Counted from the first letter of the stretch, positions 40,089 through 54,387 are shown. The stretch is DNA of 64,000 bases from a virus (IMGVR_UViG_3300014204_000122:32001-96000), one strand, 5' to 3'. Numbers and translations are program-made. Notes: generated from the letters alone by a model not told the origin.

Positions 40089-41726
40089 TTATTGTAAATA
40101 TAAATCAAATATATCATCTTCTGTTAATCCGTCTCCTAAATTAACAATGTTTCTTTCAATAATAGTTTTCATACCATCTCTAAAATCCGCCTGTCTTCTT
40201 TCTATGTGAAATATATAAAACATCGCAATGGTCAAACTCATTATTAAGTCATCATGTTTGCCTTCCGCATGATCTCTTCTCCCTCTTTTACTCCAAATCC
40301 ATGTATATAATTCATTTATTATCATAGGACAAGGTATAATTAGTTTTTTTGTATTTAACATTTCTTCTAACTTGTCACCTCCTAATGTTCTAGTTTTTTC
40401 GGTTTGCCAAAATCCTATTTTACGCTTTTTATCTTTTTGTGATGGATCTTCTCTTTTTAACGTAGAATAAAACAAATTTGTATATTTATATGTATCTCTT
40501 AAAGATATTAATACAGATAATCCAAATTGGTGTTCTACTATTACCAATGCGTTTCCATATTCTCTAGCTACTGTATTTATTATTTCAGCAAATTTAGCTG
40601 TTTCAAATTGATCTTTATATGTAGCAACTATTTCAAAATTATTTAAATTTATAACTACAAAAGTTGAAAAGTCAGATCCGTCTCCTGTTGCAACGTCAGA
40701 TACAAGAATATATTTACAACCTTCTTCATATTTCTTCCATTGCTTATAATTCTTCCATGGTCCACTTGTTATTTCATTTAATTGTTTATATTCTTTTGCT
40801 AATATTTCTAAATCTCTAACTATTTCTGGATTTAAAACTTCTCCACCAGAACCGGCAAAACTACAATCTAACTCACATCTAGTTTTTTTAGCTCCAAGAA
40901 CTTTACTTTCTGCATCATACCAAGGGCTTCTTATTCTACCATCTCTAATAAAATTGTAATCTTCTCTACAAGTACATTTATATTTACGTCTATTTTTTAT
41001 ATTATTCATATCAGGCCATGTGTCACCCTTCATAAATTCTATATAACCACCTTCAGATTTAGCTTTATCTTCTATCCATCTGTATTGACCTAAATTATAA
41101 ATAGGGTGTTCTGTCCAATGTGCATTGATAATATTCCAGTTGTTTTCTTCCGCATTTGTATATTGCTCAAAGTACCACCCCTGGCTTCCTTTTGGTGTTG
41201 AAATTACTATACACTTTCCTTGTGATCTAGTTAAAGTTAAACCAGCGGCAGCCCATATATCCTCCATCCACGATATGGCAGCGCAGTTACTACTTACAAC
41301 TTCACTTGTATAATAAATACTATTTTTTTCAACATCGAGTAAATCAAATAACTCTACTTCACCTACCTTTTTTCTTTTAGAAATTACTCTATCACCCGTA
41401 ATAACTTCATCATTTTTTTTAAGTAAATAAGTGTATTTAAATTCTCCGTTTTTCATTAAAAACTTATGATATGGAGAACATTTTAATAAATTTCCATTAC
41501 TAAACTTAATATGATAACAATATGGTTTAACTATTTTTTTAACTGAAGAAAAATTACTCCAACCTGTAGGAGTTAATACTTCCCAATCAGATATTTTTTT
41601 AACCTCTTTAGAAGATTGCGCATCTACATTATCAATATCAATAGTATTAAAATCTAACAATTCGTCGTTAACTTCTATAGATATATTATTATCTTTTATA
41701 TGTTGTTGTAATTCATCGTAGTTCAT
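40089..41726 (-). CDS. terL: terminase large subunit, C-terminal part, fused behind the split-intein C-fragment
   Basis: aa1-147 intein (WEVLTPTGWSNF, CSPYHKF, FDLLDV..YYTSEVVSSN), then C+1 AAI..., ISTPKG motif III, ELDCSF.GSG, DVATGDGSDFS, HDDLIMS nuclease motifs. Confidence 0.9.
   Translation of the reverse strand: MNYDELQQHIKDNNISIEVNDELLDFNTIDIDNVDAQSSKEVKKISDWEVLTPTGWSNFSSVKKIVKPYCYHIKFSNGNLLKCSPYHKFLMKNGEFKYTYLLKKNDEVITGDRVISKRKKVGEVELFDLLDVEKNSIYYTSEVVSSNCAAISWMEDIWAAAGLTLTRSQGKCIVISTPKGSQGWYFEQYTNAEENNWNIINAHWTEHPIYNLGQYRWIEDKAKSEGGYIEFMKGDTWPDMNNIKNRRKYKCTCREDYNFIRDGRIRSPWYDAESKVLGAKKTRCELDCSFAGSGGEVLNPEIVRDLEILAKEYKQLNEITSGPWKNYKQWKKYEEGCKYILVSDVATGDGSDFSTFVVINLNNFEIVATYKDQFETAKFAEIINTVAREYGNALVIVEHQFGLSVLISLRDTYKYTNLFYSTLKREDPSQKDKKRKIGFWQTEKTRTLGGDKLEEMLNTKKLIIPCPMIINELYTWIWSKRGRRDHAEGKHDDLIMSLTIAMFYIFHIERRQADFRDGMKTIIERNIVNLGDGLTEDDIFDLYLQ
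41286..41726 (-). mobile_element. split intein C-fragment (IntC, 147 aa)
   Basis: Block B CSPYH, block F FDLLDV, block G VSSN followed by extein Cys (41283-41285). Confidence 0.85.
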
Positions 41727-41867
41727 ATACTATATTATAGTTTTTTCTAAATATAATTTTTATTTAAATAAGATAGAATTTAAATTGTTTTCTACAGTAT
41801 TTTTTTTGTTTTTTAGATGATATCACTAAGATACATTATTTATATTTAAACAAGAAAAAAAATAATT

Positions 41868-42488
41868 TTATTTGTATTTTTCTAAATAAAAAAGATCTTT
41901 TAAGTCGATTGTTTTTGTTTGTTTTGTAATTTTATTTCTTACAACTACTTGATTATCAACTGATTCGTCGATACATAAGAGTGAAATTGTGTCTCCTCTA
42001 CATGCGTCAGGTTTATTTGCTTCGGCTAGTATTGTACTATCATTTTTTAATCCAAATGATTCTTTCGCATTATTATTTTCATCATAATCTGGGATAAGCC
42101 ACGGTGCTTTTTTTCTTGCCCCGTCTAAAAAATCTCTAACTCCTTTTAAAAACTTTTTAGATGTCTTTTTTTCTTGAGCTAATGCGTTAACTACTTTTTT
42201 TGATTTTGTAGCCATAAACCACGCTACATAGGCTTGAGCTACTGTAGTTAATCCTGTTTGACGAGTTTTCATAGTCATATTATAATCATATTCTTCAAAA
42301 TCTTTAATTGCAACATTTTGATAGGGATAAGGATCAAATAAAGTTTCAACTCCTGTATTTGGATCTGTAAGAGGAAAATAATTAGTTATAGTATACAAAG
42401 GGTCATTCATACACTTTATATATTCATTAGTTAAAACTGTTACTCTTTCTTTCTCTGGTAATGTGTTTAAATATTCTAAAGTTAACAT
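41868..42488 (-). CDS. terL: terminase large subunit, N-terminal ATPase part, fused to a short split-intein N-fragment
   Basis: PYPYQ (Q motif), KTRQTGLTT (Walker A), RGDTISLLCIDE (Walker B), then SVDNQVVVRNKITKQTKTIDLKDLF. Confidence 0.9.
   Translation of the reverse strand: MLTLEYLNTLPEKERVTVLTNEYIKCMNDPLYTITNYFPLTDPNTGVETLFDPYPYQNVAIKDFEEYDYNMTMKTRQTGLTTVAQAYVAWFMATKSKKVVNALAQEKKTSKKFLKGVRDFLDGARKKAPWLIPDYDENNNAKESFGLKNDSTILAEANKPDACRGDTISLLCIDESVDNQVVVRNKITKQTKTIDLKDLFYLEKYK
41871..41963 (-). mobile_element. split intein N-fragment (IntN, 31 aa, Ser1)
   Basis: Starts immediately after Walker B DE; block A-like S-V-D..V.V.NK.T...K.I.L.DLF. Confidence 0.8.
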
Positions 42489-42495
42489 ATTTTAT

Positions 42496-44457
42496 TTAAA
42501 TGTATTTGTAAATATCATCTTCAACAGAAATTCCCCATGTTTCATCAGTAATATCGTTTGATAATTCTATATTATTATATTCTTCATAGAACCATAATGA
42601 ATATATTTGATTTTTTTTATCTTGAAATATAAAACCATAATCATAAAATACCATATCGTTATATCCTTCTTTAATATAATCTAATTCTTCAATTATTTCA
42701 TAATTTTCATTTGCTTTAATAAGATTATAATTTTTTTCTATAAATTTTATTTTCTCTGTACTATTTGTGTTAATTACTGTTGAAAAAGGGTAAAGATTTC
42801 TGATTGCAGAATTAGTATTAGTAGGACCATCATAATAAACGGTTTTAGAATCTTCATCAATTTTAACATGATCTTCAATAAATTTATTTTTTATAATATA
42901 ATTTGAATATTTATTTATAAGATATTCTTCAACTTTTTCAGATACAGTTGGAATGAGAATCCAAACTATTTTTTTTTCTTCGTCAACTTTAATTATTTTT
43001 TCTAATCTTTCATCTAATTTAATAGGTTTAATATATTTTGAATATGCCATTTGGCTATTTTCCAAAATAGGTGTTTTATTAATATTTTTATTATAATAAT
43101 CTTCTAAATTTTCTTCAGATTCAAAATATTTAATTTCACTTTTAATTGGATTAAAATTAACCATTTCTCTTCCTTTAATAATTATACCATCATATCCTAG
43201 TTTTAACATTTCAACTTCAATAGTAGTATCTTTACGAAAATCTCTTTTGTCTTTATATTTTTTTGCTATATTACCCCAAAACCAAATTTCCCAATCATTT
43301 AATGTATTAAAAGTTTTAGGGTTTTTAGGAATAGCACCTAATACAAAATGAATCTTACCAAAAGGTTTAGCCATTTGATGATTAGATAAACAAGCTGTAT
43401 ATAAACCATCTCCTAACATTGCTCCACCACCGTTAGGGACTCCTTTTTCTCTCATTCCTCTAACTGTAACGTTTTTACGTTTCCATTTTAAATAATCAGA
43501 GTGAACATCTTCTAATAAATTTTCTTTTTTTAATAAAGATGTATGTTGTATAGTTTTTTCTCCATCTTTAGTAGGTTCAGAATAAACTATTTTTTCAGGA
43601 TTAACTACATATGTTTGATCTTTAAACATATCAATATATTTTTGTCCCTTTCCAGATTTTAAATAAGCTATTGTCGAATGTGGATTGTAATCAGGATAAT
43701 CAGAATGATAAGGAAAAATATCTGTTAATTTTTTATTTATTGAATTTAAAATATTTTTTTTAGAATTATGCTCTCTACATTCAAATTTTAAAACATCATA
43801 TTCTTTATTCTCAAAACATGATATATTATATAATTCTAAAGCTGGTATTTTAAATTCCAAAATACAATCAATTATATCTTTATAACTTTCTATTTCTTTT
43901 GTTTTAAATCCATATAATAATGTTGTGTGTGGTTCAGTCTCTAAACCAAAAGTAGGTTTGTCATATATATCTTCAGTATTTATTTTTTTTTGAATTTCTT
44001 TTAATTTATCAAAATTAAAAAACAACATAGCACATCCATATTCATATTTAGGCTTAGTTCTTTCTTCTAATAATACTTTTTTATTAGTAAGTTTCTCTAA
44101 CATTTCTACCATTGTTTTAACCTTTGATGGATTAAAACTTGATTTCACAGTGGTTGATACTAAATCTTTTCTAATATATCTTTGTATTTTATCATCTAGA
44201 TAATTTTTATCTTGTTTAGAAATTTTCTTTTTAATTATTCTTTCTATAATGTCAATAAGAGTTCTAGAATATGTTGAAGGTGAAATATTTCCTTTATTTA
44301 CTCCAGTTCCTAATTTAATCATCTTGTTTTGATCTTTTTCATTTAAATTCCCAATAGTATTAGCTTCTGGTATAGTTCTTTTAACGGCAGCCATTGCTAT
44401 ATTTAATATAACAAATCCTTGGTTATCATCTGAGGGAATAGGATAATTAATATTCAT
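42496..44457 (-). CDS. polyvalent protein: leader module, Acb1/T4 57B-like 2H phosphoesterase, ART-like domain, further domains
   Basis: MVEMLEKLTNKKVLLEE; GCAML, EPHTTLLYG and YNPHSTIAY (two HxT motifs); RG...GDGLY...A..FG...GYDGIIIKGREMVNFNP. Confidence 0.7.
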   Translation of the reverse strand: MNINYPIPSDDNQGFVILNIAMAAVKRTIPEANTIGNLNEKDQNKMIKLGTGVNKGNISPSTYSRTLIDIIERIIKKKISKQDKNYLDDKIQRYIRKDLVSTTVKSSFNPSKVKTMVEMLEKLTNKKVLLEERTKPKYEYGCAMLFFNFDKLKEIQKKINTEDIYDKPTFGLETEPHTTLLYGFKTKEIESYKDIIDCILEFKIPALELYNISCFENKEYDVLKFECREHNSKKNILNSINKKLTDIFPYHSDYPDYNPHSTIAYLKSGKGQKYIDMFKDQTYVVNPEKIVYSEPTKDGEKTIQHTSLLKKENLLEDVHSDYLKWKRKNVTVRGMREKGVPNGGGAMLGDGLYTACLSNHQMAKPFGKIHFVLGAIPKNPKTFNTLNDWEIWFWGNIAKKYKDKRDFRKDTTIEVEMLKLGYDGIIIKGREMVNFNPIKSEIKYFESEENLEDYYNKNINKTPILENSQMAYSKYIKPIKLDERLEKIIKVDEEKKIVWILIPTVSEKVEEYLINKYSNYIIKNKFIEDHVKIDEDSKTVYYDGPTNTNSAIRNLYPFSTVINTNSTEKIKFIEKNYNLIKANENYEIIEELDYIKEGYNDMVFYDYGFIFQDKKNQIYSLWFYEEYNNIELSNDITDETWGISVEDDIYKYI

Positions 44458-44461
44458 TGTT

Positions 44462-44899
44462 TTATTTATCTTCTAATAATACTTTTTTGTTAGTAAATTT
44501 TTCTAGTTTTTCTATTAAAACTTCTAGATTTTTATTAAAATTTTCAACATAAATATATTTTTTTACATTACTATGCTCTTCTATCTCTTTTTTCGTAAAT
44601 ATAAGCGCATTAGAAGCAATATTAAATGTTCCGCCTACTTCTCTAGGGCAATTTTCTAAACTCTTTAAATCATTATTAAACACATTAAAATCGCCTGTGA
44701 CAGAAATAAAATTAACAGGAATTTCTTTTAAACTGCAATTAGGAAGCTCTATACTGCCATTAACTCTAACTTGATAATCAGAATAATAATCTTTTAATAT
44801 ATTTAATTGTTCTAACTCTATATTTCCTTTATATAATAGTTCATTGTGGATTTTATCACTAGTTATAGTAACATTTTGATCAAAAATTTCTTTTTTCAT
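44462..44899 (-). CDS. LRR-like repeat protein with the leader module at its C-terminus
   Basis: Likely start ATG 44899 (MKKEIF); VTGDFNVFNNDLKSLENCPREVGG; ends LIEKLEKFTNKKVLLEDK. Confidence 0.6.
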   Translation of the reverse strand: MKKEIFDQNVTITSDKIHNELLYKGNIELEQLNILKDYYSDYQVRVNGSIELPNCSLKEIPVNFISVTGDFNVFNNDLKSLENCPREVGGTFNIASNALIFTKKEIEEHSNVKKYIYVENFNKNLEVLIEKLEKFTNKKVLLEDK

Positions 44900-45030
44900 T
44901 TTAAATTTGTTTTTTAAAAGTAAAGGTGGCGCTTTTAAACAGACAACCACCTTTTTAACTCATTAAGCTCATAACCATAATTAAATATTAAAAAAAATAA
45001 AAAAATTATATATTTAAAAATAAAATTAAC

Positions 45031-45690
45031 ATGAAAGAGATACAATTAGCCAAAATACTTGTAGATTATTACGAAAACAAAGGATATGAATGTTATAAAG
45101 AAGTGAGTTCATCAGGTAGTGGTGGATCTAAAAGAGCTGATTGTTATTTTATAAAAAAAGAAAATGGAGAAATAATTGATTCTTTTTCAGTTGAAACTAA
45201 AATGACACTGGGATTAAATGTTATAGAACAAGCTTATAAGTGGAAACCTCAAGCAAAACGTGTATATGTGGGAGTTCCTCGATTGAAAAGAAAACCTGTA
45301 AAAGCAAGAAAGTTTGCAATGTTTGTTTGCAATAAATTAGGCATAGGTATTATTGAAATAGCAAAAGGAGATATTAAAATTATACAAGAGGTAGAAGATA
45401 ATTTAAAATATAAAATGCCACCATTATATGAAGAACAAAAAAAATCTAAAGCAGGAAATGCAAAATCTCAATTTTTTACAAAATATAAAAAAACTATAGC
45501 TAATATAGATAAATTTATGAAAGACAAAAAAGAATATAGTTTAAAAGATTTATTAAATCAAATAGAACATCATTATTCAAATAATCTTTCAGCACATGGA
45601 TGTATAATAAAGTATATTAAAAAGGGAATTATAAAAAATTATACTACTAAAAGAGGAAATAAGTGTATAATGTTAGTTAAAATTAAATAA
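45031..45690 (+). CDS. PD-(D/E)XK nuclease-fold protein (MmcB-like)
   Basis: E..L, YKEV, RADCY, SVETK, VIEQA, VYVGVP, LGIGII. Confidence 0.65.
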   Translation: MKEIQLAKILVDYYENKGYECYKEVSSSGSGGSKRADCYFIKKENGEIIDSFSVETKMTLGLNVIEQAYKWKPQAKRVYVGVPRLKRKPVKARKFAMFVCNKLGIGIIEIAKGDIKIIQEVEDNLKYKMPPLYEEQKKSKAGNAKSQFFTKYKKTIANIDKFMKDKKEYSLKDLLNQIEHHYSNNLSAHGCIIKYIKKGIIKNYTTKRGNKCIMLVKIK

Positions 45691-45691
45691 G

Positions 45692-45773
45692 TTCCCACGA
45701 CAGGATTCAAACCCGCATTTTCAACATTCAATTACGTATACTTGATCCGTATTCAAGCTCGGTTACGTAGGAA
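45692..45773 (-). tRNA. atypical tRNA-Arg(ACG)-like RNA lacking a D-arm
   Basis: Acceptor TTCCTACG/CGTGGGAA; anticodon arm CTTGA-ATACGGA-TCAAG; T-arm GCGGG-TTTGAAT-CCTGT; only 8 nt between acceptor and anticodon stems. Confidence 0.55.
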
Positions 45774-45786
45774 TAAAAATAAAAAG

Positions 45787-45882
45787 TCTAGTGTGAGGGA
45801 TTCGAACCCTCGGATAATACTACCTGTGTACCACCGCACGCTTCCAAGACGTGCATCTTAAACCTAACTCGACCAACACTAG
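45787..45882 (-). tRNA. tRNA-Pro(UGG) with long variable arm
   Basis: CTAGTGT/ACACTAG + A73; CACGT-CTTGGAA-GCGTG; GAGGG-TTCGAAT-CCCTC; variable arm GGTGGTAC/GTATTATC. Confidence 0.8.
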
Positions 45883-45892
45883 TTATAATTAG

Positions 45893-45964
45893 TAGCCCTA
45901 GATTGATTCGAACAATCATCAAGTCATTCGTAGTGACCCATTCTATCCGTTGAACTATAGAGCC
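45893..45964 (-). tRNA. tRNA-Arg(ACG)
   Basis: GGCTCTA/TAGGGCT; GGTCA-CTACGAA-TGACT; GATTG-TTCGAAT-CAATC. Confidence 0.9.
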
Positions 45965-45973
45965 TCAAATTTG

Positions 45974-46058
45974 CTGATTAGGTACGACTCGAACGTACAA
46001 GCTCTTTACGAGCACTTGCTTCAAAGACAAGTGTGTTTACCAATTCCACCACTAATCA
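45974..46058 (-). tRNA. tRNA-Gln(UUG) with Leu-like body and long variable arm
   Basis: TGATTAG/CTAATCA + G73; CTTGT-CTTTGAA-GCAAG; variable arm GCTC-GTAAA-GAGC; GTACG-TTCGAGT-CGTAC. Confidence 0.8.
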
Positions 46059-46064
46059 ATATTG

Positions 46065-46137
46065 TATCCATAGATGGGTTTGAACCACCGACCGCCAAGG
46101 TATAAGCTTGGAACTCTGACCACTGAGTTATATGGAT
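46065..46137 (-). tRNA. tRNA-Ile(UAU)
   Basis: ATCCATA/TATGGAT + A73; CCAAG-CTTATAC-CTTGG; GGTGG-TTCAAAC-CCATC. Confidence 0.9.
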
Positions 46138-46160
46138 ATATTTCAATTAACTTAATCTAG

Positions 46161-46235
46161 TCGAGGTGGTGAGATTTGAACTCACGAACCGACGTTTCCA
46201 GGACGCCGTTGTATAACCATCTGCATAACACCTCG
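46161..46235 (-). tRNA. tRNA-Pro(UGG) with C33 and A37
   Basis: CGAGGTG/CACCTCG + A73; GGCGT-CCTGGAA-ACGTC; GTGAG-TTCAAAT-CTCAC. Confidence 0.75.
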
Positions 46236-46248
46236 TTATATTTTTTTG

Positions 46249-46319
46249 TTGTCTTACAAGGATTCGAACCTTGAATACCTGGATCAAAACCAGATGTGTT
46301 ACCATTACACTATAAGACA
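46249..46319 (-). tRNA. tRNA-Gln(UUG)
   Basis: TGTCTTA/TAAGACA; TCTGG-TTTTGAT-CCAGG; CAAGG-TTCGAAT-CCTTG. Confidence 0.92.
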
Positions 46320-46391
46320 ATATATTTTAAAATCTAATTCTATGTTTCTCTGTCTATCGATCCTTTAAATTAGTAACGGTCTCCTGTATCG

Positions 46392-46467
46392 TCTAGGTAG
46401 TGAAATTTGAATTCACGTGCTCTGCATCCCAAATGCAGCGAGATAAACCTGACTCCTCTATACCTAG
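46392..46467 (-). tRNA. tRNA-Pro(UGG)
   Basis: CTAGGTA/TACCTAG + A73; CTGCA-TTTGGGA-TGCAG; GTGAA-TTCAAAT-TTCAC. Confidence 0.88.
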
Positions 46468-46490
46468 TTATATATTTTTAAATTTTAAGC

Positions 46491-46527
46491 AAAAAAAAAT
46501 CTCAATCAAATTACTGATTGAGATTTT
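46491..46527 (-). terminator. attenuator terminator upstream of tRNA array 1
   Basis: Minus strand AAAATCTCAATCA-GTAATT-TGATTGAGATTTT ending in a U9 tract, between the leader ORF and the first tRNA. Confidence 0.85.
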
Positions 46528-46559
46528 CTATTAAAATATGAAATATTAACGTAAAACTT

Positions 46560-46649
46560 TTAAATTTTAATATTCAATTTTAAACATGACTCAATCAGGC
46601 TGCTTCTGCGCGGCTGTTGAGGTATTTGTATGTTTAAAATTGCGTTCAT
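46560..46649 (-). CDS. attenuation leader peptide 1, MNAILNIQIPQQPRRSSLIESCLKLNIKI
   Basis: 29 codons, below the track cut-off. Control run ATA CAA ATA CCT CAA CAG CCG CGC matches the downstream Ile/Gln/Pro/Arg tRNAs. Contains CTGATTGAG, complementary to the terminator 5' arm. Confidence 0.8.
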   Translation of the reverse strand: MNAILNIQIPQQPRRSSLIESCLKLNIKI

Positions 46650-46663
46650 TTTGTTTATTTTAT

Positions 46664-46762
46664 TTTTAAATATTACTTTTTTATTTATTTATTATTAATA
46701 TAAGAAATTATTTTTGTTTTATTTCTATTTTGATACCCTAAAGATATATTTTTTTATAATAC
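46664..46762 (-). promoter_or_regulatory. 99-bp promoter region, copy 1 (tRNA array 1)
   Basis: Matches 50124..50222 except at 3 positions; contains TTTCTTATATTA and AATATTTAAAA motifs on the minus strand. Confidence 0.75.
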
Positions 46763-46766
46763 AAAC

Positions 46767-47180
46767 CTAATATTTTGAATTATTTTTTAACACTATACCA
46801 TTTTTATAAACTTCATACTCATAAAAACGAGGTAATCCATATTTTAGAGCTTCTGCTAAATCTGTCCATTCTTCTTCAGAAACCATATCATCTGGATAAG
46901 AAAAATTACCTTTTAAATGAGCAGGTATAGGTCTTAAATTAACTAAAACTAATTCACCTTCACCACCTTTAACATCTATTGCTAATTCTTCTGTGCTCCA
47001 ATCTGATTTAGTATCGATAATTTCTTCAACTCTATCACGAATTTCTTTTTGTGTATAAATTTTAGGTGTTGGAGGATCAGGAAACATATCTTCTTTCAAA
47101 ATTATTTTTTTTCCTGAAATTCTTTGTAATTTTTCAGTAAGCAATTGTATCTCTAATTGTTTTTCCTTTTCTGATTTCAT
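46767..47180 (-). CDS. leader-tagged hypothetical protein
   Basis: MKSEKEKQLEIQLLTEKLQRISGKKIILKE plus a unique domain. Confidence 0.75.
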   Translation of the reverse strand: MKSEKEKQLEIQLLTEKLQRISGKKIILKEDMFPDPPTPKIYTQKEIRDRVEEIIDTKSDWSTEELAIDVKGGEGELVLVNLRPIPAHLKGNFSYPDDMVSEEEWTDLAEALKYGLPRFYEYEVYKNGIVLKNNSKY

Positions 47181-47181
47181 T

Positions 47182-47568
47182 CTATTTTTCTTCTATATCT
47201 TCAATTTCTACATCACTATTTTCAAAATCTATAGGTTCTACACTTATTTGTGGTTGAGTTTCTTCTCCCTCTAATGCTTTATCAACACTGATAATTTCAC
47301 AAGAAACTATGTTAGTGAATACTTTTAATCTTTTATCAATTGCATTTTTAAGTTCTTCTTCTGAAGGTTCAAGATTATTTGTAATTATAATTTTACCTTC
47401 AATAAGAGTAGGTTCAAACCCTTCAAATAAAACAGATACTTTAAATAAATAAGTAATATTGTTCCAATAACTATTCATTTCTGTAAAAACTACTTTCTTG
47501 CCAGATATTCTTTGAATTTTTTCTGTAAGTAATTGTATCTCTAATTGTTTTTCTTTTTCTGTTTTCAT
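47182..47568 (-). CDS. leader-tagged hypothetical protein
   Basis: MKTEKEKQLEIQLLTEKIQRISGKKVVFTE plus a unique domain. Confidence 0.75.
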   Translation of the reverse strand: MKTEKEKQLEIQLLTEKIQRISGKKVVFTEMNSYWNNITYLFKVSVLFEGFEPTLIEGKIIITNNLEPSEEELKNAIDKRLKVFTNIVSCEIISVDKALEGEETQPQISVEPIDFENSDVEIEDIEEK

Positions 47569-47580
47569 TATTGTTTATAG

Positions 47581-47838
47581 TTATACAGTTATTTTATTCC
47601 AAAAATCATTTAATTTTTTATCTGCACCCACTGCTAATTGAATTATGTCTTTAGATATAGGTCCTCCTATGATTTTAGCTGATTCTATAATGGCTTTTAA
47701 TTTTTCTGCTACTATTAAAATATCTTTTATATTATTAGTGGCTTCGTTTTCTTTTAAAACTACTTTCTTGCCAGATATTCTTTGGATCTTTTCAGTAAGT
47801 AATTGAATTTCTAATTGTTTTTCTTTTTCTGTTTTCAT
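47581..47838 (-). CDS. leader-tagged hypothetical protein
   Basis: MKTEKEKQLEIQLLTEKIQRISGKKVVLKE plus a unique domain. Confidence 0.75.
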   Translation of the reverse strand: MKTEKEKQLEIQLLTEKIQRISGKKVVLKENEATNNIKDILIVAEKLKAIIESAKIIGGPISKDIIQLAVGADKKLNDFWNKITV

Positions 47839-47844
47839 TATTAA

Positions 47845-48261
47845 TTAAATACTGATTGTTTTTACTTCTTGAATATTTAGTTTTCCTGGAACTACTATAA
47901 AAGTAACATTTTCACAAGTCCATTTATCATAATCATCGAATGATTCATGTTTGCACTCTTCAATAAGCTCTAAAGCATCTTCTGATTCTTTTTTATCTAT
48001 AAGAGTTAAAAAATTAAGTAAGGCAATTTTTCTATTGATTCCTTTTACATAACTTATTTCTGAAACGTCTGCATTTCCTGAATTAGATTGTGAATAAACA
48101 GTAAATATTTTTTCTTCTTCTTGAGGTTCTCCTGGTTCCATAAGTTCTTCGATAATATCTTTGTCTTCACTTTCTGTAAAAACCACTTTCTTGCCAGATA
48201 TTCTTTGAATTTTTTCTGTAAGTAATTGTATCTCTAATTGTTTTTCTTTTTCTGATTTCAT
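47845..48261 (-). CDS. leader-tagged hypothetical protein
   Basis: MKSEKEKQLEIQLLTEKIQRISGKKVVFTE plus a unique domain. Confidence 0.75.
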   Translation of the reverse strand: MKSEKEKQLEIQLLTEKIQRISGKKVVFTESEDKDIIEELMEPGEPQEEEKIFTVYSQSNSGNADVSEISYVKGINRKIALLNFLTLIDKKESEDALELIEECKHESFDDYDKWTCENVTFIVVPGKLNIQEVKTISI

Positions 48262-48296
48262 TTTATTTATATTTTAATTATTTACTTTAAATATAA

Positions 48297-48920
48297 TTAA
48301 TTTGGTTTTCCTACTAAAATTTTATAATGTTTTTCACCTGCAATGTCTCTTAAATACCAGCCTTCTTTTATATTAGATCCTTTAGGATTCTCTCCAACCC
48401 ATGTTACTTTCTTTCCTAATACTTGTTCTACTTCTTGTTGATTGTTTATAATAGGTACATTATATCTTTCTAGAACTTTCATTATTCTATTATCAACTTC
48501 ACAATAAAAACCTTGATTCTTTACTTTATTTGCAGCTCTTTCAAAATAAGATATAATAGAAGCTCTTGCTCCATCGTGTCCTACTCCTACTAATTTAATA
48601 CCGTGTTTAGTATTTTTTCCAAAATATAATACATCTATATCAGGATCTTGATCTATATCTACTACTTCTACATAAGAAAAATCATCATTTGATAAAATAT
48701 CATTTGTTGACTTTATATTACTATGACCTCCAATTTGAGAATATGCTATATTAATAAGTTCAAGAAATTCATCTACTAGTTCTGGGTGAGATTTTATATT
48801 GATTTTCTCCCACTCATGTTTTTTTAATCCTAATTTTGATGATTCTTTTTCTATAAGAATGACTTTGCTTTTAGAAATTTTTTCTAATTTTTCAATTAAT
48901 AATTGTAAAATAGGTTTCAT
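48297..48920 (-). CDS. leader-tagged hypothetical protein
   Basis: LQLLIEKLEKISKSKVILIE; body LINIAYSQIGGH...DIDQDPDID...GVGHDG...GWYLRDIAG. Confidence 0.7.
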   Translation of the reverse strand: MKPILQLLIEKLEKISKSKVILIEKESSKLGLKKHEWEKINIKSHPELVDEFLELINIAYSQIGGHSNIKSTNDILSNDDFSYVEVVDIDQDPDIDVLYFGKNTKHGIKLVGVGHDGARASIISYFERAANKVKNQGFYCEVDNRIMKVLERYNVPIINNQQEVEQVLGKKVTWVGENPKGSNIKEGWYLRDIAGEKHYKILVGKPN

Positions 48921-48985
48921 TTATAGCATTTTATTATAAATATAGGAAAGTAAAATATAAAAATTAAATTTTATAATATTTTTTG

Positions 48986-49068
48986 TACTCTAGGTCAGAC
49001 TCGAACTGACACGCTTGAGGGCGACGACGCTTAAAATCGTTGTGTACTACCAATTTCACCACTAGAGC
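48986..49068 (-). tRNA. tRNA-Leu(UAA)
   Basis: GCTCTAG/CTAGAGT + A73; ACGAT-TTTAAGC-GTCGT; long variable arm; GTCAG-TTCGAGT-CTGAC. Confidence 0.88.
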
Positions 49069-49073
49069 ATTTG

Positions 49074-49155
49074 TGATCTAAGAGAGATTTGAACTCTCAC
49101 TATTTACATAATTAGCTTCTTAAACTAACGTGTCTACCAATTCCACCATTAGACC
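49074..49155 (-). tRNA. tRNA-Leu(AAG)
   Basis: GGTCTAA/TTAGATC + A73; TTAGT-TTAAGAA-GCTAA; Leu-type D-arm GTGGAATTGGTAGACAC. Confidence 0.85.
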
Positions 49156-49163
49156 ATATTTTG

Positions 49164-49253
49164 CGGAAGATGAGGGGGTCGAACCCTCGTAACGGTTTTT
49201 AAGCGTCCTAATTGTTTAGCAAACAATCCTCTTTACCATTTGAGTAACCTTCC
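49164..49253 (-). tRNA. tRNA-Ser(GCU)
   Basis: GGAAGGT/ATCTTCC + G73; ATTGT-TTGCTAA-ACAAT; long variable arm. Confidence 0.9.
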
Positions 49254-49265
49254 ATTTTATTTTTG

Positions 49266-49340
49266 TAGATTAGAAGGGAGTCGAACCCTCACTGAATAGT
49301 TTCTAAAACTATTGCCTCTTAACCATTGGGCTACTAATCC
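49266..49340 (-). tRNA. tRNA-Leu(UAG) with short variable loop
   Basis: GGATTAG/CTAATCT + A73; ATAGT-TTTAGAA-ACTAT; variable loop only TCAGT. Confidence 0.82.
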
Positions 49341-49354
49341 ATTTATATTTTTTG

Positions 49355-49445
49355 TACTCCAGGTCGGACTCGAACCGACAGTGTTTTCTCAATGAGTGTC
49401 ACCGTTTAAAAGTGATGCGTTTCAACCAAGTTTCGCCACTGGAGC
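49355..49445 (-). tRNA. tRNA-Leu(UAA)
   Basis: GCTCCAG/CTGGAGT + A73; TCACT-TTTAAAC-GGTGA; GTCGG-TTCGAGT-CCGAC. Confidence 0.88.
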
Positions 49446-49464
49446 ATATTTATTTTTTTATTTG

Positions 49465-49537
49465 GGTGAAAACGGGGCTCGAACCCTGTCCTAGATATTC
49501 ACAGTATCTCATGCTAACCAATAACACTATTTTCACC
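49465..49537 (-). tRNA. tRNA-His(GUG)
   Basis: G-1 GTGAAAA/TTTTCAC C73; AGATA-CTGTGAA-TATCT. Confidence 0.85.
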
Positions 49538-49546
49538 ATATATTTG

Positions 49547-49639
49547 CGGAAGAAGTAGGATTCGAACCCACACACCCCTAAAGGCCCTCGGTTTTCAAGA
49601 CCGCCGCCGCTACCCTGCAAGCTTTCGGCTTATTCTTCC
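49547..49639 (-). tRNA. tRNA-Ser(UGA) with enlarged D-loop
   Basis: GGAAGAA/TTCTTCC + G73; CGGT-CTTGAAA-ACCG; long variable arm; D region GCCG-AAAGCTTGCAGGGTAG-CGGC. Confidence 0.8.
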
Positions 49640-49653
49640 ATTTTTTTATTTAG

Positions 49654-49743
49654 GGTGAAAGACGAGTCACGATCTCGCATTAAGTTGTTACACTATTCCA
49701 GAACCACAATCTGGTCGGCATCCAATTACCGGCTACTAACACC
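49654..49743 (-). tRNA. atypical tRNA-His(GUG) with long variable region
   Basis: G-1/C73; acceptor with two T-T mismatches; CCAGA-TTGTGGT-TCTGG; T-arm GCGAG-ATCGTGA-CTCGT; 19-nt variable region. Confidence 0.6.
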
Positions 49744-49831
49744 ATATATTTTTAAAATAATATTATAAGCCGTACACTTTTCACAGTCGCTATGGGTTTC
49801 AACCATTTAGTACTTATAATATTATTTAAAG

Positions 49832-49915
49832 CGGAAGAAGAGAGATTCGAACTCTCGAAGCTTTTACACCCAGTTGTTTTCAAAACAATGTCCTCATGCC
49901 TACCGGATTTCTTCC
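49832..49915 (-). tRNA. tRNA-Ser(UGA)
   Basis: GGAAGAA/TTCTTCC + G73; TTGT-TTTGAAA-ACAA; GAGAG-TTCGAAT-CTCTC. Confidence 0.85.
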
Positions 49916-49960
49916 AAATTTATTTTTTTTACAATTATTTCAATGAACTATATACAAACA

Positions 49961-50000
49961 AAAAAAACCCTTGATCAATTTATTTAGATCAAGGGTTTTT
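49961..50000 (-). terminator. attenuator terminator upstream of tRNA array 2
   Basis: Minus strand AAAAACCCTTGATC-TAAATAAATT-GATCAAGGG followed by a U tract. Confidence 0.85.
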
Positions 50001-50026
50001 AATATTAACTTTTAAAATTATAGAAA

Positions 50027-50119
50027 TTATCTTTTCGTTAAATCATACCTTGATCCACATCTGCTACTTGATAACAGGTGTAAATGCGATAACAACGATA
50101 TGATAACTATTTTTTTCAT
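50027..50119 (-). CDS. attenuation leader peptide 2, MKKIVIISLLSHLHLLSSSRCGSRYDLTKR
   Basis: 30 codons. Twelve consecutive Ser/Leu/His codons match the downstream tRNAs. Contains GGATCAAGG, complementary to the terminator 5' arm. Confidence 0.8.
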   Translation of the reverse strand: MKKIVIISLLSHLHLLSSSRCGSRYDLTKR

Positions 50120-50123
50120 TTTC

Positions 50124-50222
50124 TTTTAAATATTACTTTTTTATTTATTTATTATTAATATAAGAAATTATTTTTGTTTTATTTCTATTTTAATGCTCTA
50201 AAGATATATTTTTTTATAATAC
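50124..50222 (-). promoter_or_regulatory. 99-bp promoter region, copy 2 (tRNA array 2)
   Basis: Direct repeat of 46664..46762 (96/99 identical by manual comparison). Confidence 0.75.
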
Positions 50223-50247
50223 TAACCAAATTATTTTAAATTATTTT

Positions 50248-50892
50248 TTATTTCATTACATATAGTTGGTATTTTCCTTTAGGAAATTCTTTAATTTCTT
50301 CAGGTGTATTAGCTGTTGCTAAAACCTTAGTTAATGTTCCAACATAGTAAGGATTATAAATTTTTGCTTTTCTATTATAAAGAGATGGAAGTTTAGTTGT
50401 ACCATTTCCATCATCAAATAAATATAAATCTCTATTATCTTTTAAATATTCTTCTGTTTTTCCTGAACCTGATAAAATAATTGTTTTATCATTTCCCACA
50501 AGTTTAAGTAAAAAATATGCTGTCTTATTTTGCACAAACTCATTATTTAATGGATTTTGCGTATCAATTTTACTATCTGAATTTAAACAAGCTATTTTTA
50601 TTCCTTTCTTTTCTTCTTCTAATATAATACTTTTATTAGATAATGTTGAAAATGCACTTTCATTTAGCACTTCAAAAACCAATATACCGTTACCACCAAA
50701 TTTTGAATTATTTCCTACTAATTGTCCCTCTTCATCAAATCCTAAATGAGACCAACCATCTTCTTCTAATTCTTTTTTAAATTCAGGATCTAATTCAACC
50801 TCTTCTTTTAAAACTACCTTCTTACCAGATATTCTTTGAATTTTTTCAGTAAGCAATTGTATTTCTAGTTGTTTTTCTTTTTCTGATTTCAT
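50248..50892 (-). CDS. leader-tagged hypothetical protein
   Basis: MKSEKEKQLEIQLLTEKIQRISGKKVVLKEE; internal VLNE and IILEE. Confidence 0.75.
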   Translation of the reverse strand: MKSEKEKQLEIQLLTEKIQRISGKKVVLKEEVELDPEFKKELEEDGWSHLGFDEEGQLVGNNSKFGGNGILVFEVLNESAFSTLSNKSIILEEEKKGIKIACLNSDSKIDTQNPLNNEFVQNKTAYFLLKLVGNDKTIILSGSGKTEEYLKDNRDLYLFDDGNGTTKLPSLYNRKAKIYNPYYVGTLTKVLATANTPEEIKEFPKGKYQLYVMK

Positions 50893-50896
50893 TATT

Positions 50897-51466
50897 TTAT
50901 ATTTTATTTATTATTAAGTTTTCAGGAATATCAACTATATATTCTCCTGATGTTAAAGGGTCCAAAAATAAAAGTCCTCTTGGAGTACTTAAAACTAATT
51001 CTTTTCTTTTAGTTTGCGATGGATTTGAAATAAACCCTAAAACTTTTCCTACTTCAAAACTATTATAACCATTATATCCTATATATTGGTTTTGTTTAAG
51101 TAACCACAAACCTCCTGTTTTATCTAAATTTTTAATATGATCTTTAATACTATTATTAGATGTAAATTCTTCCTCAAAACTATCACCCATATCAGGATGT
51201 ACAATTAAAGGATTTTTAACTAAAGGTAATTTAACTTTATAATCAGGATATATTTTTTTAAAATATTCTAATACTTCAATTTTAATAGGAGTATTTTTTA
51301 AATTAATTATTTTATTTTCTTCATTAATATTATCAATAAAATTTTTTATTCGTTCTTCTATTTTAACAGGTTTGGCATGTTTAGAGTAGTAAACATAATC
51401 ATCTTCCAAAATAACCTTTTTATTAACAAGGTTTTCTAATTTTTCTATTAATATATTTATGTTCAT
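50897..51466 (-). CDS. leader-tagged hypothetical protein
   Basis: ILIEKLENLVNKKVILED, then YSKHAKPVKIEERI (similar to a segment of 42496..44457). Confidence 0.7.
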   Translation of the reverse strand: MNINILIEKLENLVNKKVILEDDYVYYSKHAKPVKIEERIKNFIDNINEENKIINLKNTPIKIEVLEYFKKIYPDYKVKLPLVKNPLIVHPDMGDSFEEEFTSNNSIKDHIKNLDKTGGLWLLKQNQYIGYNGYNSFEVGKVLGFISNPSQTKRKELVLSTPRGLLFLDPLTSGEYIVDIPENLIINKI

Positions 51467-51468
51467 TA

Positions 51469-54387
51469 TTATAATTCGTTATAATTTTCTTCTGCTTTTT
51501 CTAATTTTGGAGATAATTTTTTAATTTTCTCTTTTATTTTTTCAATTTTACTATTTAAATCATTCATTTCTCCTCCTATTTCATTAGCAACATTTTCACC
51601 TTCACTTTCGCCACCCTTTTCTATTGCTTGAGGAATTAATTCTTCTTGATCTATATATAATTGTCTTAATTCTCTTTTATAATCTTCTAATTCTCTTTCT
51701 AAGTCATCCATCTCATATCTAAGATTATCATATTTCTCCTCAACCCTATCTTTTCTGATTTGTTTATTTTTTTCTATTCTTTCACTTCTTTTATTTGCTA
51801 TATCATAATCAGATACTGTTATGCTTCTATCAAATTTTCCATTTACAAAAGGAGACCAACCTCTTTCAGTTCTTATATGTTTAATATCGTTTATAAATTT
51901 TATTGTACCTATAGGAATTACTGGTTTTGTATTGTTTTCTTTTGAAAAAACAGATTTTCTAGATTCTATTAAACTAGCACTAGAATTTGAATAAGAGAAT
52001 TTTTTTTCTTCTTCTATTTGCTCATATTCTTCTCTTGTAATGATTTTTGTTTCAACTTTAACTATTTCTATATATTCAGATAAATTTTCTTCCCATTTTT
52101 CTAACGCTGTTTTTTCTATTTCCTCTGCTTCTTTTTTAGTTAATATAACATCATTATAATCTCCAGCTATAATATCACATTGACATCTACCTACACTATC
52201 TATCCATTCTGCAACAACAACAAATCCTTTTATATCTTCTATTTTGTTTAATTTATTTATTTCATAAGCAGGGACTTCTTTAAACCCAGTAAATTTAGGT
52301 TGTTTTAATTTTTTAAATTGAGTAGCTTCTAATAAATCATCTTTTTTTTCAACTACATAATATTGATACGCATTATCTATCTCTTCAATAGAAGGCTTTG
52401 CTTTTTCAGAATATTGATCTCTAGTTATTCCTTTATCATCTAAAGCGTGTATTTTTTTCCAATCTTCATCATTATATTCTTCACCCTCTTCAGTTATTAC
52501 ATCATCTTCTTGGTTTTCTTGATTTAAAAGATCTTTATATTTATTAATAGAAATAGGAAATGCTCTAACGTTTGAAGTGTTATAATTTTCTGGATTATTA
52601 CTTTTCCATGTTTTTAAAGCTTTATTACACAGTTCATCTGCTTCTTCGTATGATACACCTTGTTCTGTAGAGTGTATTATATCCCATTTTTCTTCACCAT
52701 CTTCTGTCCATTTACATATAGCAACATATGAAGTTTTTATTATATCTTTTAGATTTCCATCAGAAATAATAGATGATTCTTCAATAATACCTTTTATGTC
52801 TTCTATAATATATTCTGTATAAGATTTTAAATCTATAGGGTTTAACTTTTCAGGTTTTATATTTGTTAAATAAGATATTATTTTTATTCCTTTTTCAGAA
52901 TCTTTTATAAAAGAATCAAAATCAGATATTTTTTTATTATTATCTTTTAATTTTTTTATTATATTTTCTTTTTCTTTTATAAGAATTTGGTCAAATTCGC
53001 TCAAACTAATATATTCTCTTTCTTTTTTATCTAATTCTATTAATTCTTCTTTGGAATTTACTACTGTGTCAGATATAATACTATTTTTATATTGAACTTT
53101 TATTTCTGTGAATGGTTTACCAAATTCAAAATTGGTATTTTCAAAAGCTTCCTCAATTGTTTTTCCTTCTCCTATTTGCTCTGATTCTTGTTCTACAAAA
53201 CTGCTTTCGTGATCTCTTACTACAATATTCCATCTATAATTAACCAAATATAAATCTTGATTTCTATTATATTCAAAACTATAACAATCATCGTTCTCAA
53301 TTGCTTCTTGATCTTCATCAGACATAATACGAGGTTTTCCTCCAATTAAATCATCATTATAAGTTAATAATGTTTCTATTAATAATTCATCGTTAGAAAC
53401 AATTTTATTTTTAAATAAATTAGAAGTAATAAAAGAGGGAAGATTATCATATTCTAAATTAATATATTTTTCACAATCATCAGGATCTTTAATTATAGTC
53501 AGTAACAAATTACAACGCTCATCAGAATTTAAAATTTCCCAATCTTTATTTGTAATTAAACTATTTTTATTTTCTTCTACAACATAAAGATTATCAGTTT
53601 CTTCTGTTAAACTTTTTACCAAAGATTCTTTTACTTCTTTTTCTACATCTTTTTTAATATCTTCAAAATTCTCAATAAATTCTTTAGTACAAGTGCCTCC
53701 CGTAATTGTAACCCTATCTGTTTGATTATAATGTAACTTATCAGCAGAGTATATATGATCTATAATTTCAGAAACATCTTTGCCCCATTTTTCTTCTATT
53801 AAATTAAAAATTCTAATTAACTCGTCACTTTCTAATTTATCGAACTTCTCCCATATTTCAACTAACCAATTTTCTATAGGGTAAAGTTCATCAAGACTAT
53901 ATATCTTGTTAGAGTTTATTGATTCTTCAATAACATCATTTGATTTTAATAAAGCTTTATTTAATCCTTGCATAGTAATGTCTATATTATCATTTACTGT
54001 AAAATTATCACCTGCAATAACATTTGTTCCTTCTAAAACAACAACACCATAACCACTATCACCATCAGGTTCATTATCATTTACATTTTCTTTTAATAAT
54101 TCCCAAGCTTTAAGAATACCATTTTCAGTAAACTCTTCTGTTTCTTCACTATAATCACTACCAACATCTCCAGTGAAATCATAAAAAAATACACATACCT
54201 CATTAATCATTTCTTCTAAACTATCGAAAGGTCTAATTGCTACACTTTCATCGTTCCAATAAATAAAAGAATAAGGACTAGCCTCTTCTTCTTCTAAATA
54301 TTCAAAACCTTTTACTTGTTTTTCGTTTGTTGTTATATGAATTGTTTTATAATCATAATGATTTGGAAAACCTGCGTATATTTTCAT
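51469..54387 (-). CDS. large acidic multidomain protein (putative internal head polyprotein)
   Basis: 972 aa, Glu-rich, with repeated I/L-x-E linkers, an internal duplicated domain and a C-terminal coiled coil. Confidence 0.55.
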   Translation of the reverse strand: MKIYAGFPNHYDYKTIHITTNEKQVKGFEYLEEEEASPYSFIYWNDESVAIRPFDSLEEMINEVCVFFYDFTGDVGSDYSEETEEFTENGILKAWELLKENVNDNEPDGDSGYGVVVLEGTNVIAGDNFTVNDNIDITMQGLNKALLKSNDVIEESINSNKIYSLDELYPIENWLVEIWEKFDKLESDELIRIFNLIEEKWGKDVSEIIDHIYSADKLHYNQTDRVTITGGTCTKEFIENFEDIKKDVEKEVKESLVKSLTEETDNLYVVEENKNSLITNKDWEILNSDERCNLLLTIIKDPDDCEKYINLEYDNLPSFITSNLFKNKIVSNDELLIETLLTYNDDLIGGKPRIMSDEDQEAIENDDCYSFEYNRNQDLYLVNYRWNIVVRDHESSFVEQESEQIGEGKTIEEAFENTNFEFGKPFTEIKVQYKNSIISDTVVNSKEELIELDKKEREYISLSEFDQILIKEKENIIKKLKDNNKKISDFDSFIKDSEKGIKIISYLTNIKPEKLNPIDLKSYTEYIIEDIKGIIEESSIISDGNLKDIIKTSYVAICKWTEDGEEKWDIIHSTEQGVSYEEADELCNKALKTWKSNNPENYNTSNVRAFPISINKYKDLLNQENQEDDVITEEGEEYNDEDWKKIHALDDKGITRDQYSEKAKPSIEEIDNAYQYYVVEKKDDLLEATQFKKLKQPKFTGFKEVPAYEINKLNKIEDIKGFVVVAEWIDSVGRCQCDIIAGDYNDVILTKKEAEEIEKTALEKWEENLSEYIEIVKVETKIITREEYEQIEEEKKFSYSNSSASLIESRKSVFSKENNTKPVIPIGTIKFINDIKHIRTERGWSPFVNGKFDRSITVSDYDIANKRSERIEKNKQIRKDRVEEKYDNLRYEMDDLERELEDYKRELRQLYIDQEELIPQAIEKGGESEGENVANEIGGEMNDLNSKIEKIKEKIKKLSPKLEKAEENYNEL

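Follow-up and report, generated by a model that had tools for sequence, protein, structure and literature searches.

The classical ribosome-mediated transcription attenuators are those of the trpL, hisL, leuL and pheL leaders of Escherichia coli and Salmonella, together with the multivalent thrL and ilvGMEDA leaders. The purpose of phage tRNAs has been disputed for fifty years: one view holds that they compensate for codon usage, and the other that they replace tRNAs lost in infection or cut by defences. To our knowledge, hardly anything has been described of how phage tRNA expression is controlled. Classical attenuators respond to tRNA gene dosage in addition to amino-acid supply; the pheA attenuator was de-repressed 6- to 7-fold in a mutant without one of the two tRNA-Phe genes (PMC3082878). 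Here, we analyzed a 64,000-nt stretch of viral DNA (the window), which comprises bases 32,001–96,000 of a 136,569-bp IMG/VR virus record (IMGVR_UViG_3300014204_000122; 26% G+C, estimated to be 63% complete). The window of this AT-rich jumbo phage carries two tRNA units, and the same genome carries a third. Judging from the sequence, each unit is very likely to be a ribosome-mediated (leader-peptide) transcription attenuator placed upstream of tRNA genes.

The two units of the window are located on the minus strand between 50248 and 45691 and have one identical layout, in which a shared putative promoter block is followed, in order, by a leader open reading frame (ORF), an intrinsic terminator and a tRNA array. 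The distance from the terminator to the first tRNA gene is 16–40 nt. The original prediction, made from the same DNA, had described this shared layout with a near-identical promoter region, leaders of about 30 codons and terminators, and all of these elements were found on the minus strand where it had placed them. The features are listed below in window coordinates unless indicated otherwise.

46650–46788, minus strand: unit 1 shared putative promoter and 5′ untranslated block (repeat D4; alignment with units 2 and 3)
46560–46649, minus strand: leader ORF 1, 29 codons plus stop, with its ATG directly after the shared block (ORF list)
46608–46631, minus strand: control run 1, codons 7–14 of leader 1, Ile(ATA) Gln Ile(ATA) Pro Gln Gln Pro Arg(CGC), all read by array 1 tRNAs
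46590–46598, minus strand: putative antiterminator strand 1 (region 2), CTGATTGAG, exact 9-nt complement of the terminator 1 5′ arm, beginning 3 codons past the run
46486–46529, minus strand: intrinsic terminator 1, 15–16 bp stem, 4-nt loop, U9 (inverted repeat I14)
45691–46467, minus strand: tRNA array 1, Pro(UGG), Gln(UUG), Pro, Ile(UAU), Gln, Arg(ACG), Pro, plus a weak tRNA-like element at 45691–45772
50110–50248, minus strand: unit 2 shared putative promoter and 5′ untranslated block, second copy (repeat comparison, three-unit alignment)
50027–50119, minus strand: leader ORF 2, 30 codons plus stop, with its ATG directly after the shared block (ORF list)
50063–50098, minus strand: control run 2, codons 8–19 of leader 2, twelve Ser/Leu/His codons, all read by array 2 tRNAs
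50048–50056, minus strand: putative antiterminator strand 2, GGATCAAGG, 8 Watson–Crick pairs and 1 G–U pair with the terminator 2 5′ arm, beginning 2 codons past the run
49957–50006, minus strand: intrinsic terminator 2, 14-bp G+C-containing core, U8
48985–49915, minus strand: tRNA array 2, Ser(UGA), His, Ser(UGA), His, Leu(UAA), Leu(UAG), Ser(GCU), Leu(AAG), Leu(UAA)
genome 122,628–122,756, plus strand: unit 3 shared block, third copy of the composite promoter box

Each leader is matched to its own array codon by codon. The runs I-Q-I-P-Q-Q-P-R and S-L-L-S-H-L-H-L-L-S-S-S, which had been read in leaders 1 and 2 beforehand, were recovered as codons 7–14 and 8–19, respectively. According to the codon usage of the phage, array 1 can read 12.5% of its codons and array 2 can read 16.8%, and the chance of such run lengths is approximately 1e-6 for the run of 8 in leader 1 and approximately 1e-8 for the run of 12 in leader 2. 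When the 337 ATG-started ORFs of 20–40 codons in the genome were scored, each leader ranked first for its own array. Run 2 samples TCR and AGY for Ser, TTR and CTG for Leu, and CAT and CAC for His; for most tRNAs, the runs sample both the Watson–Crick and the wobble codon. Rare synonymous codons (TCG, CTG, AGC, TTG, CAG, CCG and CGC, each 1–7% of its family) are abundant in the runs, and 5 of the 12 codons in run 2 are rare (<10% of the family). Only Arg and Ile have their tRNAs divided between units, and this division is mirrored in the leaders at the codon level: leader 1 contains ATA and CGC (CGC represents 2% of phage Arg codons), matching the tRNA-Ile UAU and tRNA-Arg ACG of unit 1, and leader 3 contains ATT and AGA, matching the GAU and UCU anticodons of unit 3. 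As a whole, the codon–array match is far beyond chance.

The original prediction had proposed that the comparison be carried beyond the window. The third unit (genome 122,628–126,138), which has the same promoter box, obeys the same rule. Its 28-codon leader contains a 22-codon own-array run (P = 1.7e-3) and includes 15 of the 15 amino acids served by its tRNAs (coverage P = 2.8e-4); it has no Pro, Gln, Ser or His and only one Leu, located after the run. The 5′ arm of the unit 3 terminator is complementary (12/13) to the final leader codons. Approximately 20 tRNAs are arranged in two arrays (arrays 3 and 4), between which are two small protein genes. These encode proteins of 158 aa and 65 aa (genome 124,763–125,437; locus L126, 3264–3938) that belong to no Pfam family. 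A 56% identical homologue of the 158-aa protein is located beside a tRNA unit in a 362-kb phage genome, G002 (locus L127, 10001–10447), and this retention next to a tRNA unit suggests a tRNA-related function.

Concordance between leader codons and array anticodons in other phages was one of the points on which the original prediction had agreed in advance to stand or fall. Such concordance was found in other phages with different amino-acid groupings, and permuted pairings were worse. Cellulophaga phage phi4:1, a cultured phage reached via a tRNA-Pro match, has three units with a repeated promoter block, leader and terminator. Its arrays serve Pro/Glu/Gln/His/Leu/Arg, Ala/Lys/Ile/Gly/Met/Asp/Thr/Val/Arg and Tyr/Ser/Asn/Trp/Phe, and its leaders contain own-codon runs of 11, 11 and 10. 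The complete genome of G002, reached via the homologue of the 158-aa ORF, has four units that divide all 20 amino acids among them (Cys/Val/Leu; Phe/Glu/Asp/Ala; Pro/Gln/Lys/Gly/Tyr/Thr; and His/Trp/Ile/Met/Asn/Arg/Ser), and every leader matches its own array; the putative promoters bear the Bacteroidota −7 consensus. In the three genomes (this phage, phi4:1 and G002), each of the 10 leaders scored its longest run against the array behind it, and the true leader–array pairing was the single best of 864 within-genome permutations. In Caulobacter phage phiCbK, annotated terminators precede tRNA blocks, and the upstream small ORFs again match their arrays, with runs of 14 and 6 own-array codons. 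A blind scan, in which every small ORF upstream of tRNAs was scored for its own-codon run, recovered the leaders with runs of 5–22, and the remaining small ORFs tested had runs of ≤4. In the tRNA regions of T5 and Lak-B1 (the tRNAs of the latter being dispersed), the same scan gave a longest run of 3 and no such units. Because the scan recovers the leaders but finds nothing above 3 in T5 and Lak-B1, the leader–array design is real and recurrent, yet lineage-restricted.

Several additional observations were made in these genomes. The leaders of Cellulophaga phage phi17:2 differ from those of phi4:1 by one synonymous change and hence hold no co-variation information. Unit B of phi17:2 is without the annotated tRNA-Lys that is present in phi4:1 (L140, 5473–5876 versus L123, 6973–7564), and its leader B is identical to that of phi4:1, with the Lys codons kept; this points to a recent loss that the leader has not tracked so far. 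In G002, an ORF resembling an HNH endonuclease lies between the terminator of unit B and its tRNAs (L127, 7907–8305), and elsewhere in the genome is a tRNA whose anticodon is CUA and which could act as an amber suppressor (L130, reverse strand, 778–851).

The RNA structures expected of an attenuator were examined by folding. The leader–terminator transcripts had z-scores of −5.6 (unit 1) and −5.8 (unit 2), and 0 of 200 shuffles folded as well. Each leader had been predicted to carry a 9-nt complement of its own terminator 5′ arm. The positions and spacing of both segments held, as did the exactness of the unit 1 complement (P = 0.002, 5000 shuffles); the unit 2 segment was found to make 8 Watson–Crick pairs and 1 G–U pair, and its 8-nt exact match alone has P = 0.1. 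In untranslated RNA of unit 1, CTGATTGAG is predicted to pair back onto the control codons, forming a 1:2 protector helix within a perfect 13-bp outer stem, and the helices of this unit make up the classical 1:2, 2:3 and 3:4 set. In untranslated RNA of unit 2, GGATCAAGG is predicted to pair with the His-Leu-His codons. Equilibrium folding of the full transcript with a ribosome mask was uninformative as a test of the switch, with the terminator winning at every position. The switch was folded using transcripts that ended just before the terminator 3′ arm, along which a 29-nt ribosome mask was stepped codon by codon. Antiterminator pairing was present in the minimum free energy (MFE) structures of the shortened transcripts. 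In the masked folding, the terminator 5′ arm was sequestered for all A-site positions through the end of the control run and was released at codon 15 in unit 1 (run end, 14) and at codon 19 in unit 2 (run end, 19). Release occurred within approximately 1 codon of the run end in 7 of the 10 units of this phage, phi4:1 and G002. This register indicates that a ribosome stalled in the run would leave the antiterminator strand free and that a moving ribosome would cover it. The attenuator geometry claimed at the outset was thus borne out, with the alternative pairings in the expected register.

The shared blocks of units 1 and 2 (46650–46788 and 50110–50248) are 88% identical across 139 nt, and 97 of the 101 positions in their core (46664–46764 and 50124–50224) are identical. 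The unit 1 block contains a GTATTA...TATCTTTAG box, which is similar to the Bacteroidota −7 element, followed by an A-rich leader up to the ATG. The composite promoter box is present in exactly 3 copies in the 136-kb record, one for each tRNA unit. An exact scan of viral contigs with a 17-nt promoter motif returned only chance matches in AT-rich DNA; one matched locus carried a tRNA array cut at its end. The 15 nt upstream of leader 1 are 80% A and contain no Shine–Dalgarno motif, and the region upstream of leader 2 is 67% A and likewise Shine–Dalgarno-free. The regions upstream of the long ORFs of the phage are similar, with a mean of 59% A and a Shine–Dalgarno-like motif in 6 of 83. The likeness of these A-rich, Shine–Dalgarno-free start contexts fits translation initiation of the Bacteroidota type. 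The leader start codon was unpaired in the MFE fold of both units.

Default ARAGORN called 7 tRNAs in array 1 and 5 in array 2; the fuller lists were obtained using Rfam at an E-value cut-off and ARAGORN at a relaxed threshold. By these means, array 1 was found to contain Pro x3, Gln x2, Arg(ACG), Ile(UAU) and one weak tRNA-like element, and array 2 to contain Leu x4, Ser x3 and His x2. The predicted composition of array 2 was therefore recovered in full, as were the Pro x3, Gln x2, Ile and one Arg of array 1, and the second Arg predicted for array 1 was called weak, because 45691–45772 is only a weak tRNA-like element. Together, the three units provide 25 anticodons and serve all 20 amino acids; if wobble and superwobble pairing are allowed, CGG (0.01% of codons) is the only codon in the long ORFs that this set leaves unread.

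The tRNA genes themselves have some unusual features. The 3′ CCA was unencoded in all tRNA genes inspected. Several tRNAs of families that are normally class I have a long, class II-like stem-loop variable arm: Pro (97 nt), Gln (86 nt), His (90 nt), Lys (93 nt), Glu (86–90 nt), Arg(UCU) (86 nt) and Met (84 nt). They are found in the window (45786–45882, 45973–46058 and 49653–49742), in genome arrays 3 and 4 (123,671–126,054) and in G002 (loci L128 and L129). Every long-arm tRNA has a canonical-length isoacceptor beside it in its own unit, and the same pairs occur in G002. Spacers with no recognised tRNA were observed inside the arrays at window positions 46320–46390 (71 nt) and 49743–49830 (88 nt, holding an 18-nt inverted repeat, I13) and at genome positions 123,138–123,410 (272 nt); their content may represent tRNAs that have degenerated, signals for processing or small RNAs.

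The anatomy, the codon–anticodon match, the way in which leaders and arrays vary together from phage to phage, and the alternative pairings in their register form the in silico basis for reading each unit as an attenuator. From these, we infer leader translation, the coupling of transcription and translation in the host, and a response of read-through to tRNA supply. Transcription would begin in the shared block, and a ribosome would load on the A-rich, Shine–Dalgarno-free leader and translate codons that are read solely by the tRNAs of its own unit. With plentiful cognate aminoacyl-tRNAs, the ribosome would advance within a few codons onto the 9-nt antiterminator strand; with this strand covered, the 15-bp terminator would form and RNA polymerase would stop ahead of the array. 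If any cognate aminoacyl-tRNA were scarce, the ribosome would stall within the run and the antiterminator strand would stay free to pair with the emerging terminator 5′ arm, so that the polymerase would continue into the tRNA genes. The new tRNAs would relieve the stall, making each unit a negative-feedback loop on its own supply of (charged) tRNA. Considering that the three units cover 20 amino acids with a minimal set of 25 anticodons, the phage could top up or replace the host tRNA pool by module. The original prediction that a tRNA set is made only when ribosomes stall for lack of those tRNAs came through every in silico test able to refute codon-matched attenuation, but its "only when" is too strong for a leaky switch; a tRNA set is probably produced when the codons it serves are being decoded slowly.

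A number of results weigh against this interpretation. The exact complement is significant solely in unit 1 of this phage, unit C of phi4:1 and unit C of G002, and in most units, sequestration of the 5′ arm, taken individually, does not differ significantly from that in shuffles. The terminators greatly exceed the 8–9 bp antiterminators in stability at equilibrium; as the terminator always wins under these conditions, the switch would have to operate kinetically, as it does in trp. Leader 1 continues for 10 codons past its antiterminator strand, and termination in unit 1 would consequently rely on re-formation of the 1:2 protector helix. A few codons ahead of the runs are ones that belong to other units. 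In leader 3, most tRNAs are polled a single time, and the sensitivity of this leader to the loss of any one tRNA should therefore be low. Internal promoters could bypass the attenuators, and there may be read-through from array 2 into the protein genes at 46767–48920. A search of sequencing runs for the locus found no RNA match, the only strong match being a landfill metagenome DNA run.

Some of the evidence bears on whether a switch of the kind described, or something else, operates at these loci. That the terminators are constitutive and merely end or insulate upstream transcription, with the small ORFs as chance frames or independent small proteins, would agree with the annotation of phiCbK, in which the terminators before the tRNA blocks are given without further comment, and with that of the small ORFs of phi4:1 and phiCbK as hypothetical proteins. 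However, a promoter block directly precedes each leader, which places the terminator inside a unit and not at the end of another; moreover, the composition match (P 1e-6 to 1e-8), the correct pairing being the best of 864 permutations, and leader peptides that follow common composition rules with no common sequence make this the least probable of the explanations considered. Direct sensing of tRNA in the manner of a T-box, in which the triplets would serve as specifiers and tRNA binding would stabilise the antiterminator without translation, would also account for triplets that match anticodons, and T-boxes are known tRNA-sensing terminator switches. Against it, cmscan of 44000–52000 at E-values up to 1 returned only tRNA-clan and chance matches, the control triplets all fall in one frame that is opened by an ATG in a favourable context for initiation and stays open for 28–33 codons in 26% G+C DNA, unit after unit, and 8–22 adjacent specifiers are without precedent; we regard it as nearly as improbable as any reading weighed here. 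Coupling of the opposite sign, in which a translating ribosome would prevent Rho-dependent or hairpin termination so that arrays are made while translation is healthy, is very unlikely, if less so than either of the foregoing. Ribosome–polymerase coupling can generally suppress termination, and the stop codon of unit 3 overlaps the antiterminator strand, but the leader stop codons lie 11–31 nt upstream of the terminator 5′ arm and no leader ORF reaches the terminator. In addition, the antiterminator strand lies just 3′ of the run, where it is left free by a ribosome that stalls and hidden by one that moves on, and codon matching to the unit's own tRNAs would be purposeless under positive coupling.

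A further possibility accepts the same switch and concerns the role for which it was selected, namely counter-defence, which the original prediction had stressed: anticodon nucleases (PrrC, PARIS AriB, retron PtuAB or colicin-like toxins) would cut tRNAs, the cognate unit would open, and resistant phage tRNAs would replace those cut. Phage tRNAs have been proposed to offset host tRNA depletion and to evade anticodon nucleases (PMC10264068). The phage has a complete minimal decoding set for all its codons but CGG, and many of its isoacceptors occur as a canonical copy together with an odd copy bearing a long variable arm, possibly a resistant version. On the other hand, the amino-acid groupings vary among the four phages and do not match the target sets of known nucleases, and leader 3, which polls 15 amino acids once each, suits a global rather than a specific sensor; these two points favour a general supply controller over a nuclease-tuned response. 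No defence or counter-defence gene is tied to the units, whose neighbours have no Pfam or PHROG function, and nothing separates this role from supply–demand feedback in the ordinary infection of a host of different codon usage. Counter-defence as the selected role is thus a tentative proposal, which we consider rather unlikely; it and plain supply–demand feedback are both plausible fits and are mutually compatible. A broader reading of the attenuators, to which we give about even chances, is that in at least two bacterial phyla, tailed phages carry a modular, self-regulating substitute for the host tRNA pool: a complete minimal anticodon set divided into units, in each of which the leader polls its own tRNAs so that exactly those lost are re-supplied. 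If this is true, the phage would sense which tRNAs vanish, whether through anticodon-nuclease defence, host shut-off or codon-usage mismatch, and leader-peptide attenuation would be a general phage sensor of decoding capacity, beyond its use by bacteria in sensing amino acids.

With regard to the surroundings of the units, six consecutive or nearby ORFs on the minus strand of the window (46767–48920 and 50248–50892) open with a common Lys/Glu-rich tag of approximately 27 aa (repeat families D1/D2), and their bodies after the tag are unrelated to one another. Tagged genes are placed between array 2 and the unit 1 promoter, where co-transcription with array 2 is possible. Pfam and PHROGs searches of the ORFs adjoining or inside the units assigned no function, and a 219-aa flanking ORF had no relatives in the viral contig collection. 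The large terminase gene is split into two pieces (window 40089–42488); with the 545-aa piece of TerL as the query, one 26.7-kb relative, without tRNAs, was found, and cultured phages gave distant matches only.

A full-text literature search, which left subscription-only and pre-2000 papers largely uncovered, found no description of attenuation, leader peptides or upstream ORFs (uORFs) controlling tRNA genes in phage or cell, in agreement with the original prediction, which knew of no account of attenuation acting on phage tRNA arrays. In a large attenuator survey, tRNAs appear only as T-box ligands. The E. coli tRNA-Phe genes pheU and pheV were considered as a precedent and rejected, their upstream regions having neither a leader ORF nor a terminator. 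A leader made of own-array codons combined with a switchable terminator would mean that the phage gauges decoding speed codon by codon and adjusts its tRNA output, a design that favours supply on demand over constitutive supplementation. Since phages in culture also carry the design (phi4:1 with Cellulophaga baltica, and phiCbK with Caulobacter), the question is directly testable. With these units, a textbook mechanism would be seen to act on a class of genes new to it; they would be the first multivalent attenuators to sense up to 15 amino acids and would offer compact natural parts, each of approximately 170 nt, for reporting whether chosen tRNAs are available.

Among phages, T5 and Lak-B1 (as sampled) also have large tRNA sets interspersed with small ORFs and homing endonuclease genes, but without the promoter–leader–terminator–array unit. 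T-box riboswitches are similar to the units described here in being terminator/antiterminator switches that read tRNA status, in their case at aminoacylation genes. In a T-box, however, uncharged tRNA is bound directly, with no need for translation, and Stem I and the T-box sequence are conserved, whereas the triplets here are in an ORF and gave no Rfam match. The cysteine-responsive attenuators of mycobacteria likewise consist of short uORFs with runs of one type of codon, polycysteine, at which ribosome stalling controls the downstream operon (bioRxiv 10.1101/834739); unlike the phage leaders, they sense one amino acid, belong to leaderless mRNAs and regulate cysteine-metabolism genes, with no tRNA genes involved. 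Leader-peptide attenuation of pheST through the pheM leader, and of other genes of the translation machinery, resembles the phage units in placing a component of the decoding machinery under the control of the charged-tRNA level, but there one amino acid is sensed, the product is a synthetase protein and the gene is cellular. The closest likeness in structure is to the attenuators of amino-acid operons (trpL, hisL, leuL, pheL, thrL and ilvGMEDA), which share the short leader ORF, the run of control codons, the terminator and the mutually exclusive antiterminator, with the 5′ strand of the latter just downstream of the control codons; unit 1 also shares the 1:2 protector helix, and the rare synonymous codons in the runs are reminiscent of the leu leader. 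In contrast to those operons, the phage units are borne in several copies per genome with one common promoter block, their leaders poll 3 to 15 amino acids (the maximum is 3, in ilv), and the regulated genes are tRNAs instead of biosynthetic enzymes (or synthetases), so that the molecule sensed would be the product itself. The mechanism is of a known kind; new are the class of genes that it would regulate, its self-referential logic and how broad its leaders are, from 3 to 15 amino acids.

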